From the IMG/VR virus record IMGVR_UViG_2548876700_000013: a stretch of DNA of 5,404 nucleotides, one strand, 5' to 3'. The position numbers are program-made. This DNA comes from a virus (Duplodnaviria > Heunggongvirae > Uroviricota > Caudoviricetes). This document shows positions 1-3,000 of the stretch, piece after piece (position 1 is the stretch's first letter; every line of letters begins with the position of its first letter).

Positions 1-3000
1 TTTCCATCTGGTACATACCCCGTCTCCCGTTATCCGGAAGCTGACAACAATAAAAAGCCACCAGTTAATTCCTGATGGCCCTGATGCATAAACGTCATAA
101 TACCTGACTGTTATGATTGACAATAATGATAATGTTTATATAGAAAGGTTCCCGATGTGTGTTACATATCATTTCTCCACGGGGAATATCCCCACGCCAG
201 CGCAGACTCTTTTACCCGTTCTCTTCTGCGCTGGCTCTTTTTTATTATGCTGCTGCATTTACCTCTGGCACCATGCTTTCTATCTCAACACAATACGTGG
301 TACTTCTTGTAACCAATATCATAACGATTAATCGACATAGAATTTCTCCCGTGTACAGGAACAGAGTTAAAAAGCCGGAACCGGAATCAAATCACAGGAT
401 GACCATCTGCCAGTGGCAGGTCATAAAAAAAAGGCCGCGCCATGCGCAGCCAGAACTCACAAGGAAAATGATAGAAGGAAATAACATTAGTGATGTACGC
501 ATGGCGCCTCCCGCTAAGTTCTGCAATGATCAAACAGAACTCGCTACGTGCCCTTAAAACTCGATCATTTAGCCCCTCCAAGGAGGATTCACCATGCGGT
601 TGATTTTTTAATAAACAGTAAACAAAAAAGTCAAGAATTATTCATTCTGTTCTTTCATCATCGGCCACAGCAATACCACAATGCCGCAGACCAGAGCGCC
701 ATCAGTCAGTACCAACATTATCCTGCTGGTGAAATCCATCATCACCATCACTAAAAGCAGGATCACAACAGCAAGCAGACACAGTTTATAAAACAATGTT
801 CAGGAAACGCATTCAGCATGCCTAAGGTTCTATTCCTACGAATAGCCAACTTGCAACTTAAAATATTATTTATGCAGCCAATTAAATTCTGGTCCTTACA
901 ATATCAACCTGAAGATTCTTATCTTGTGCTGATTGATAAATGACAAACCTTTTACTACCTGCATTGAAAGAAGTAGACAAAACCAGACAATTATCATAAC
1001 GAGCAAGAACATAATACCAACCATCATTATAATTAATCATTTCATATTCTTTCTTAAACTGTGGTTTGTAATATCCTGTCAGAAATGAAAAAAGCCAGAA
1101 ATATGCCACAAAAGCAATCATCACAATCTCAAAAAAATGTTTTTTTATAAATGGCTTATCATAGAAGCATGATACCGATAAAAATCGCCCATAAGATCTT
1201 ATCGAAATTGTAACCGCCAGCGCAATCGCTGCTGACAGTAGCAAAAGAGGTACCTGAATCTTCTGTCTCAATATAGAAAACTCAATAATTGCCGGCACAA
1301 ACAATAATTCCACAGCAAAATAAAGGCGAAATACATTTAGCTCTTGCATAGAATGTTTTCTTTTCACTGCGAAAAAGAATACAACACCAATACCCCAACC
1401 GATAAGAAATATAGCAATGACGATAACTGCAAAAAATAAACTTCTGGCAACATCATCAACACCTGCACCTACAATCCACCATGGGAAGCCGTAGTAAAAA
1501 GAAGTACCCCATCCATAGAAATAAGCACTCCCCCATCCAAGGCATCCCATGTAGGCAATAAAAAGTGAAGAACTCCTGAGCAGCGCACCATCCTTCATAA
1601 CCACCCCAATACAAGATGATAACATTGGCTTACAACTCATAACAAAAGCAATTCAATGCCGTCAAGAGGTTACAGGCTAAAAAAACTCTATTACATAGCA
1701 GCCAGCATGTTTACCGTACAAGTACAACTCAGGGCATAAAAAAAAACCCACTCGGCAGCGGGTTTATACATTTTTTACAACATACCAAATTTGCATGAAG
1801 TATATGGCTTTTAATCCAGTTTTGCAATATTTTGCTGTAAAAATGCTGCCTTTTGTTTTGAACGTGTTCTCGTCACAAGCAATAAAGCATCACTATCAAG
1901 CTGTAGAAAAATGTGCTTCATTGCAACCCAGCGTTCAGTAAATGTCTCGGACCAGTTTTTTGTTGTCACTCCCACCAATGATGCCAGTGTCTGGTATTCA
2001 TAGGCCTCACGCCCTGCAAGTTCGCTCTTCACATCCTGTGCAGCCAGCCAGATTAACGTCTTCAGGCGATCCAGTGTCTTACCTGCAATTTTTCTGTTAC
2101 TTAACAAATCTTTAAACTCGCTCCATGCCCATTGCGTTATGGTGACCTGATGCCCCCATCGAACGCTTTCGCTGTAACACCAAAGCAACCATGCTTTCTG
2201 ATGTTCATCGAGAGACAAAACCGCGCGGCGCCATGAAGAGGTTGAGAATTCAACCGGGCTGACCAAAGCAATGGATGAACCTTTTGCGTACGACTGCTTA
2301 CCGGAAGTCGGCGTATTATCCAGCGTAATCATCTTGCCAGTTACCACATCCAGAATGCGCGGCTTCTTTCGTTTGTATGTACCAGTATCAAATTGTGCAT
2401 GCTCCTGCCAGGCTTCGAGCTGGCCTTTCGTTGCTCCGTTCAAGTCAGCAGTAGCTGCCATAAGTTGCTCACGAACATACTGTAAATATTGGGTATTCAT
2501 GCAGTAAATCCTTTCTATATTTTGGCATAATTCTTCAACATTCGGTAATCGTTCAAAACCGAATCGGGGAAACGACATAAGCACAGGAGCCCCCAGCGAC
2601 AGCGAAGGAGTTCTGATATATAAGACTCAGACATCATTCATTCCCCGGTTCTCCAATATCTGTTTCACTCATCATCCATAACTACCTGTAATTGCCCCCC
2701 CTTTTTTTGTAACAGTTCTTATATTGCTATATAGAATAGCCATTACTAATGCATTTAAATTTAATAAAATAAAAATTATAAAAAACATAAAACACCACGC
2801 AAACACACTTAATAAAAACACCGTTACATTAAAAGATAATAAAAACCGCAATAAAAAACGAATAAATCAATTGTCTCACGCAATTATAAAACATCATATT
2901 GATTACGCACCTTGTATTACAAACTCATGTATGTAAAATACGCGCACCATTCAAAAAAAAGGAAGACAATAACATATGAAAAAAAGTGTCATCGCTGGCG

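Follow-up and report, generated by a model that had tools for sequence, protein, structure and literature searches.

A TfpB/STM1630-family inner-membrane protein in the Q-proximal slot of a lambdoid prophage, a candidate lysogenic-conversion factor

The stretch of DNA considered here is a window of 5,404 nucleotides (nt) from the viral record IMGVR_UViG_2548876700_000013 (Caudoviricetes), and the gene under study lies on its minus strand, directly downstream of the late antiterminator gene Q, in the place where lambdoid phages normally hold lysis genes or cargo. The gene (882-1598; stop codon TAA at 882-884, likeliest start codon ATG at 1598-1596) encodes a 238-amino-acid (aa) membrane protein of the TfpB/STM1630 family. 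The reading favoured here, which is given a probability of about one half, is that its product may be a non-enzymatic inner-membrane adaptor acting as a lysogenic-conversion factor, in other words a moron-type accessory of the envelope. An original prediction, made from the sequence alone, had offered exclusion, abortive infection and envelope modification as possible roles, and an envelope-modifying factor is the most plausible class among them.

The same prediction considered the protein unrecognised and impossible to place in any family, a view overturned by the searches. The window protein is 100% identical over 238 aa to CPT_434_68 of phage 434, annotated as a 'putative membrane protein' (OL657226.1; genome announcement PMC9119081), and 100% identical to the 'membrane protein' ECs0816 of prophage Sp3 from Escherichia coli O157:H7 Sakai. 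Precomputed Pfam assignments place an identical protein (P0001) and all 103 homologues in PF27470 (TfpB), a name taken from gene-context tables, and the protein also matches PHROG 1521 (E 2e-154), which is annotated as function unknown. The RefSeq label 'STM1630 family protein' is carried by a fragment of a paralogue. Salmonella STM1630 itself (P0075) is 46% identical to the window protein; its identity was checked by means of a published deletion primer, which encodes NSSMLLAYLGGLGWG, the gene being 717 bp long and located between steB and sseJ. The TfpB protein of Moraxella (P0235, 'protein tfpB') aligns by BLASTP over 220 aa with 29% identity (E 1e-23). The exact protein is already annotated in the phage 434 and O157 genomes and belongs to a curated family, and its sequence adds nothing new in that respect. 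The name TfpB is also borne by a PilB-like motor of Acinetobacter.

The TfpB/STM1630 family is small: a profile search of 1.84 billion representative proteins recovered only 72 clusters, and the members with a name belong to Enterobacterales, Pasteurellaceae, Neisseria and its relatives, and Moraxella. Two family alignments (A2 and A3) are collinear from end to end, with a length of about 240 aa, five helices (the first rich in aromatic residues and glycine), and a small C-terminal beta domain common to the family. Local scans of the protein against Pfam-A, NCBIfam and PADLOC returned nothing meaningful; the Pfam-A copy used predates PF27470 and gave no match even for Moraxella TfpB, and the missing local match to that family is due to the absence of the model from this copy. 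The suggested likeness to TM2 domains could not be sustained, as PF05154 was unmatched in the Pfam scan at E<=1 and the sole result was a chance match to DUF4501 (E 0.23). Holin families were not matched in Pfam or PHROGs, nor were transporter models in the library scans, and the C-terminal domain alone had no Pfam match. When the Protein Data Bank (PDB) was searched by sequence, using either the full profile or just the C-terminal domain, chance matches alone came up (E 2.8 for an antibody chain, E 0.009 for darcin), and fold searches against solved and viral structures returned only generic helical hairpins.

The open reading frame (ORF) is that of a functional gene. The maximal ORF extends over 882..1640 of the minus strand and would encode 252 aa. 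Its GC content is 36.3%, compared with 46.1% for Q, 45.0% for NinI and 41.4% for the whole window, and 212 nt separate the gene from the stop codon of Q (PF06323, 1811-2500). The ratio of non-synonymous to synonymous substitution rates (dN/dS) was calculated for seven relatives and, where dS is unsaturated, amounts to 0.05-0.2; for this reason the ORF is taken to be a functional coding gene rather than a decaying fragment. The gene is intact at >=99% identity, that is, at least that close, in 679 complete E. coli genome records. Some genomes carry frameshifted copies of the TfpB-like gene.

The ORF foreseen at 882-1640 was real and intact, and its start needed correction. Since every full-length homologue begins at the equivalent of M15, encoded by the ATG at 1598, the product is most likely 238 aa long, and not 247-252 aa. 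The sequence GGGGTGG (1601..1607, minus strand), 2 nt 5' of this ATG, resembles a Shine-Dalgarno site, and a purine-rich GG block is conserved at the corresponding position of the upstream alignment. The 14-codon 5' extension of the maximal ORF (1599..1640, minus strand) is absent from nearly all homologues, overlaps a promoter-like element discussed below, and is probably untranslated; the two upstream ATGs, at 1640 and 1625, lie inside or just 3' of that element. The RefSeq protein WP_001302581.1 and the phage 434 protein UMO75332.1, both of 247 aa, start at the ATG at 1625, about 11 nt past the -10-like element. As compared with the family-wide start, the phage 434 and Sakai records, which give no function, begin nine codons further 5', and the starts annotated by RefSeq and in phage 434 are probably too long by those nine codons. 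The start giving 247 aa lies at 9625 in locus L001 and at 5974 in locus L002.

The description of the product as an AT-rich multi-pass membrane protein with about five segments, an aromatic and glycine-rich motif, and a small C-terminal domain was borne out by hydropathy and AlphaFold2. Hydropathy reveals four strong hydrophobic segments and a weaker N-terminal one rich in aromatic residues and glycine. AlphaFold2 reached a predicted local distance difference test (pLDDT) score of 63.5 from a shallow alignment, and a mean of 79.4 with a predicted template modelling (pTM) score of 0.70 from an alignment that included distant relatives. The latter model holds helices at residues 6-36, 47-79, 89-111, 116-136, and 155-181 of the 238-aa protein, followed by a five-stranded beta domain at residues 184-235 (pLDDT about 85). 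On the minus strand, the membrane region with its five helices (residues 9-176, from hydropathy and AlphaFold2) is encoded at 1071..1574 and the C-terminal beta domain (residues 177-238, from the AlphaFold2 strands and predicted to face the periplasm) at 885..1070. The motif LGWGSAYFYGWG, within helix 1 (residues 20-31; codons at 1506..1541, minus strand), is nearly invariant across the family in alignments A1 and A2, and is partly retained in Moraxella TfpB.

The topology was assigned by the positive-inside rule, from loop charges counted in 27 family members. The two loops assigned to the cytoplasm hold on average 3.4 and 4.4 lysine and arginine residues, versus 1.0 and 0.7 in the other two, so that the N-terminus and the loops at 78-91 and 134-155 are predicted to be cytoplasmic, and the loops at 32-52 and 111-115 and the C-terminal domain to be periplasmic. 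Only A15, A25, Y26, G37, G175, and Y195 are conserved in at least 90% of the wide alignment, which contains no set of conserved polar residues that would suggest catalysis. Because no polar residues are conserved family-wide, the protein is probably not an enzyme.

The region between Q and the gene combines elements of the late operon with others that seem to belong to the gene. A late-promoter-like site found by the promoter scan (TTGCAA, 17 nt, TATACT; 1799..1827, minus strand) overlaps the end of Q, and is followed by a terminator hairpin with a 9-bp stem and a run of nine T (1736..1765, minus strand, stem-loop at 1765-1744; terminator scan). This hairpin is kept 5' of the gene behind different Q families and in a relic in an iro island, and would be the local equivalent of tR', travelling with the cassette. 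Downstream of it lies the promoter-like element TTGAC...TTTGTTATG (1636..1665, minus strand), invariant in the cassette, which comprises a -35 hexamer TTGACG (1665-1660), an 18-nt spacer, a TG (1644-1643), and a -10-like TATGAG (1641-1636), and which was recognised by its conservation across loci.

This conservation was measured in an upstream alignment of 39 distinct sequences from both phage clades, an enterotoxigenic E. coli (ETEC) plasmid, and the iro island. TTGAC is invariant in all 39; its distance from the start codon is -66 to -70 for 30 out of 33 distinct sequences, and it is followed 17-18 nt further 3' by a nearly invariant TTTG..ATG. The upstream sequences are overall only 46-62% identical to the window, about as in the coding region, and the element is the only invariant non-coding block among them; it coincides exactly with the promoter suspected at 1637-1665 in the original prediction. 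The plasmid and island copies have nothing in common further upstream of it, and the homology of the ETEC plasmid copy to the window begins at this very element. The case for a promoter is built on cross-locus conservation alone, because the generic promoter scan performed no better than chance (8 sites versus 8.8 in shuffled sequence); that scan also reported an overlapping second site, TTGTTA-18-TATCAT, at 1645-1616. A possible RNA switch in the 5' leader (1795-1590) was rejected, its folding energy being ordinary (z = -0.32).

Taken together, these parts suggest that the unit is a moron, made up of a 5' terminator, a putative promoter of its own, the gene, and, in the lineage of the window, a DUF3927 gene and a 3' terminator. 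The GC content differs from that of the flanking phage genes, and the presence of the unit varies between otherwise similar phages, while the same unit is found behind Q genes of the lambda, DUF1133, and antitermQ types. Its borders can be traced by homology: similarity to Q modules of the DLP12 type passes the late-promoter-like site and ends at about 1778-1782, while cassette-only homology, found behind a lambda-type Q, starts at about 1742. The interval between Q and the lysis genes is a cargo site, with the TfpB-like gene among its commonest occupants.

Such variable cargo had been expected, and a comparison of prophages confirmed it. A second phage clade was studied in 66 viral contigs; its alleles share 72-85% identity with the family member P0045 and 57% with the window protein, and in 64 of these loci no recognised gene comes between Q and the TfpB-like gene. 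Their Q genes fall into four families (Q82-like, lambda-like, DUF1133-type, and antitermQ-type), and for the two types seen most often the median distance from Q to the gene is 230-245 nt; a Yersinia allele also lies 3' of an antitermQ-type Q. What follows the gene varies: an N6/N4 methylase, LpxR, PmrD, a SASA esterase, or directly the holin. At one locus (L205, 8001-9890), Q is followed by the TfpB-like gene, then by the A gene of an LT-II-like toxin, whose product shares 56% identity with EltA, and then by the holin. In a prophage whose Q is 90% identical, the holin comes straight after Q with no cargo, and the holin and endolysin families differ; another has a frameshifted TfpB-like copy and lysis genes annotated as intact. 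The Shiga toxin genes (stx) of Stx phages, nmpC of DLP12, and the LT-II genes occupy the same slot and share the same predicted dependence on Q read-through. Unlike this classical cargo, which consists of secreted toxins or a porin, the gene in the window encodes an inner-membrane protein and is preceded by a promoter-like element of its own.

Beyond phages, family members are found in strikingly virulence-associated contexts. Matches occur in 1197 of 5426 complete E. coli genomes, in up to four places per genome, and divergent alleles of 57-68% identity circulate in this species. A further 156 plasmids carry a match, of which 106 are from Shigella, 37 from E. coli, 12 from Klebsiella, and 1 from Salmonella. 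ETEC plasmids (L101-L105, at about 2987-5714) hold an intact TfpB-like gene about 870 bp from eltA and divergent from eltAB, the genes of the heat-labile toxin (LT), and this plasmid locus may descend from a prophage late region like the one in L205. The Shigella invasion plasmid pINV pCP301 carries the gene as CP0168, among insertion sequence (IS) elements and about 5 kb from spa40. A copy adjacent to iroBC (L106-L109, at about 4800-7950) keeps the phage hairpin AACCCGCTGCCGGGCGTTTTTTT upstream and a Lambda_Bor remnant downstream, which suggests that this segment of the iro island is what is left of the late region of a lambdoid phage. A TfpB-like fragment also lies beside papX.

Other copies are chromosomal. 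The Salmonella gene is located outside any prophage, between steB and sseJ; at the loci of S. arizonae and S. diarizonae the neighbour is an ORF of 408-426 aa, taken as SseJ from its position and length. Citrobacter rodentium has a TfpB-like gene at a non-phage chromosomal site, adjoining a frameshifted LpxR gene, and this site is considered syntenic with that of Salmonella, as each is followed by frmA and a chemoreceptor gene. Pasteurellaceae hold a solitary chromosomal gene with apparent housekeeping flanks, at sites that differ between species, and one Aggregatibacter genome has two copies at different loci (L012 and L015). Family members are also found in Neisseria. A 3-kb contig binned as a Veillonella metagenome-assembled genome (L004, JAIITD010000172.1) encodes a TfpB-like protein, NinI, and DUF3927, all 100% identical to those of the phage, and is almost certainly a binning contaminant.

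The closest relatives by context are those of phage 434 and Sakai Sp3, where the neighbours are as in the window (NinG, NinI, an opposite-strand LpxR, YlcG, a Q82-like Q, the gene, and DUF3927), phage 434 having an additional SASA esterase before the holin. The relative with the only experimental data for the family, which do not define a function, is STM1630. As the window gene, it encodes 238 aa with the same architecture, is AT-rich and horizontally acquired, and is flanked by virulence genes; it differs in having an experimentally supported promoter of another kind, about 170-180 nt upstream. STM1630 is bound by H-NS and expressed in strain 4/74 in macrophages and in medium inducing Salmonella pathogenicity island 2 (SPI-2), and it is silenced in sequence type 313 (ST313) by two single-nucleotide polymorphisms in the -10 element (PMC6785131, S1 text). 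Signature-tagged mutants were reported to be attenuated in calves and chicks, and deletion of the gene in 4/74 raised fold-replication within macrophages (PMC6785131, S1 text). Hypermotility of an STM1630 deletion, which came from a deletion-library screen, was set aside here, as it does not figure in the set of phenotypes that clean deletions confirmed.

From these observations a mechanism can be proposed for the phage-borne protein. The 238-aa product would reside in the inner membrane with five transmembrane (TM) helices, its N-terminus in the cytoplasm and a beta domain of about 60 residues exposed to the periplasm. In the lysogen it would be transcribed from the promoter of the cassette itself, the 5' terminator insulating the unit from upstream transcription unless the polymerase is Q-modified; after induction, expression would be higher, as Q-modified polymerase would read through the hairpin. 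The adaptor would bind a periplasmic or membrane partner through its conserved aromatic and glycine-rich face and its beta domain, and this binding would alter a property of the envelope relevant in the animal host, that is, lysogenic conversion. Gene neighbourhoods suggest as possible partners the LpxR pathway of lipid A remodelling and type IV pilin-like proteins, the Moraxella context being the sole support for the latter.

Several points weigh against this proposal. All the experimental data come from Salmonella STM1630 and not from the phage-borne protein, and the phenotypes in Salmonella are mild, hypermotility falling outside the confirmed ones. The position as first late gene would also suit a role in lytic growth. 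The promoter is a conserved motif rather than a mapped start, and its -10 (TATGAG or TATGTA) lacks the usual final T; supporting expression data from a lysogen are tied to the gene through an inferred equivalence of locus tags. The link to LpxR is present in only 4 of the 66 second-clade loci and may simply arise from a recombination hot spot common to two cargo genes, and pilin genes were absent from the surroundings of all enterobacterial and Pasteurellaceae copies examined.

An unlikely alternative is superinfection exclusion or abortive infection, whereby the protein, made in the lysogen from its own promoter and at high level late in infection, would block DNA entry or kill the cell upon a second infection. 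A membrane protein with a conserved promoter-like element in a prophage, first among the late genes in most loci, would fit such a role, as would the divergent E. coli alleles and the two copies in one Aggregatibacter genome; also, pilin-linked accessory genes of Pseudomonas can serve phage defence, according to PMC11841053. Nevertheless, no PADLOC-DB defence model was matched at E<=1, in a database whose coverage of exclusion proteins is incomplete, selection is strongly purifying rather than diversifying, and the loci examined showed no defence genes nearby. A role in host interaction or in the envelope is preferred over phage defence because of the stable chromosomal site by frmA kept in Salmonella and C. 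rodentium, the SPI-2-type regulation in Salmonella, and the virulence-plasmid contexts, the copies on toxin and invasion plasmids fitting host interaction better.

Another possibility, rated as quite unlikely, is that the protein is a partner or regulator in lipid A remodelling, controlling the activity or latency of LpxR, or PmrD-dependent modifications, and thereby altering the lipopolysaccharide (LPS) of the host. LpxR adjoins TfpB-like genes in four layouts. The two genes are divergent with ylcG and Q between them in the window, phage 434, and Sp3, and again, with a different TfpB allele, in L241-243; they are convergent, in some cases with PmrD behind LpxR, in L115-117 and L184; and they are divergent and adjacent at the C. 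rodentium chromosomal site. Both genes have diverged in step, the TfpB-like proteins being 68% and 66% identical to that of the window and the LpxR proteins about 70% and 70-75%. The layouts other than that of the window in which LpxR homologues adjoin TfpB-like genes number three (L115-117, L118, and L184). PmrD, a connector protein in the control of lipid A modification, has homologues in the slot between Q and the holin, beside LpxR in L116 (7187-7504) and L184 and without LpxR in L235. These arrangements hint at a cargo cluster for lipid A remodelling in the slot. LpxR is reported to be latent in the membranes of Salmonella, and lpxR mutants to show reduced growth in macrophages, a change contrary to the one seen on deletion of STM1630. 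Against a dedicated role of this kind, no LpxR gene lies nearby in ETEC, Shigella, the iro island, Salmonella, Pasteurellaceae, Moraxella, or 62 of the 66 second-clade loci; the link may reflect mere common cargo space; and the control of an outer-membrane enzyme from the inner membrane needs an unproven route.

The third alternative, an improbable one, sees the protein as an accessory factor for type IV pilin-like proteins, either of type IV pili or of the pseudopili of type II secretion. It draws on the TfpB of Moraxella bovis and M. lacunata, the namesake of PF27470, which is homologous to the window protein over 220 aa and keeps AY.YGWG..Y.G.PWW, the G-Y-x-R/K-x motif after helix 5, and the YY.L beta strand. 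It differs from the window protein in its length of 261 aa, in the absence of any phage context, and in its location inside an invertible segment of type IV pilin genes. There, tfpB lies between pilin genes, and both inversion states are seen in different assemblies: the full-length pilin gene (N_methyl domain) is upstream of and co-directional with tfpB in L113, which thus directly follows it in this one orientation, and convergent with it in L110. This arrangement presumably corresponds to the classic pilin inversion region. Family members are located beside LT toxin genes as well, and LT is exported by the type II secretion system.

A further parallel is offered by TfpY, TfpZ, and FimB. These pilin accessory proteins likewise cross the inner membrane several times, the N-terminus lying in the cytoplasm and the C-terminal domain in the periplasm, and their genes adjoin pilin genes, as tfpB does in Moraxella (PMC11841053). 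The likeness is one of analogy only; TfpY and FimB have three helices instead of five and a larger, mixed alpha/beta periplasmic domain (PMC11841053). Pilin or pseudopilin genes were seen at the Moraxella loci only, with none in the window or near the enterobacterial, Pasteurellaceae, and phage copies examined. The remaining alternative, a holin, antiholin, or regulator of lysis timing, is highly improbable: although this membrane protein is encoded between Q and a class II holin and would be co-transcribed with the lysis genes after antitermination, it matches no holin family in Pfam or PHROGs and has 238 aa and five helices, further genes and a strong terminator stand between its gene and the holin, purifying selection acts on it where lysis genes are absent, a prophage with the same Q type has a lysis cassette without it, and a frameshifted copy accompanies lysis genes that are annotated as intact.

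The whole 5.4-kb window is the late-regulatory region of a lambdoid prophage. This prophage, named Sp3 in Sakai, occupies a site next to ybhC in O55:H7 and O157:H7 strains of E. coli, where the region is 99.9-100% identical to the window; the late region of phage 434 encodes four proteins 100% identical to those of the window and a NinI with 97% identity. Read in the direction of the late genes, the minus strand encodes the end of NinG (4809-5009), the NinI phosphatase (4147-4812), YlcG (2515-2637), the Q82-like antiterminator Q (1811-2500; PF06323, E 1.7e-91, and so annotated in RefSeq and phage 434), the TfpB-like protein, and a 52-aa DUF3927 (TciB-like) membrane protein (638-796; PF13064, E 3e-14; PHROG 1470). 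The lipid A deacylase LpxR (2976-3935; PF09982, E 7e-40), a cargo gene 5' of Q, is encoded on the plus strand. A short N-terminal remnant of a lambda-type Q lies directly after NinI (4079-4150, minus strand; annotated in RefSeq and phage 434), and it suggests that a block comprising LpxR, YlcG, the Q82-like Q, and the cassette replaced an older Q module by recombination. The LpxR gene, between NinI and Q, lies within AT-rich DNA, with 27-35% GC at 2551-3150.

The DUF3927 gene is located 3' of the TfpB-like gene in the window-type lineage only, and PHROG 1470 labels its product 'TciB-like inhibition of cell division or resistance to colicin'; no informative literature was found for PF27470, TciB, DUF3927, or 434B. 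The 3' end of the cassette contains a strong terminator with a run of eight T (451-433, minus strand; terminator scan) and a match to the small RNA (sRNA) family STnc100 (422-627, minus strand; Rfam, E 1e-5) that covers the full model length and falls below threshold, with 37.7 bits as compared with a gathering score of 47. A small ORF on the minus strand (387-581) is frameshifted relative to CPT_434_70 of phage 434, and RefSeq annotates an opposite-strand ORF of 132 aa at 159-557, which is without family support. The class II holin begins just past position 1, outside the window, and two genes and a terminator come between the TfpB-like gene and the holin. No tRNA genes are present in the window, unlike in Stx phages.

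A wider and more doubtful version of the adaptor proposal would see in this family a widespread, phage-spread inner-membrane adaptor that controls a virulence-relevant envelope process, be it the latency of LpxR or the way in which type IV pilin-like proteins are handled. Such a role would explain the company that the family keeps with toxins (LT and the slot equivalent to that of stx), the type III secretion effector genes sseJ and steB, the Shigella invasion plasmid, and pilin loci in Enterobacterales, Pasteurellaceae, Neisseria, and Moraxella alike. One family links a post-Q prophage gene, an LT-adjacent ORF of ETEC, an ORF of the Shigella pINV, STM1630, and an ORF of the Moraxella pilin inversion region. 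Should a role in the envelope or in virulence be true, phage 434 and E. coli K-12 would offer an easy genetic system for its study. These cross-links and the conserved promoter of the cassette are useful leads, rather than the discovery of a new kind of system.

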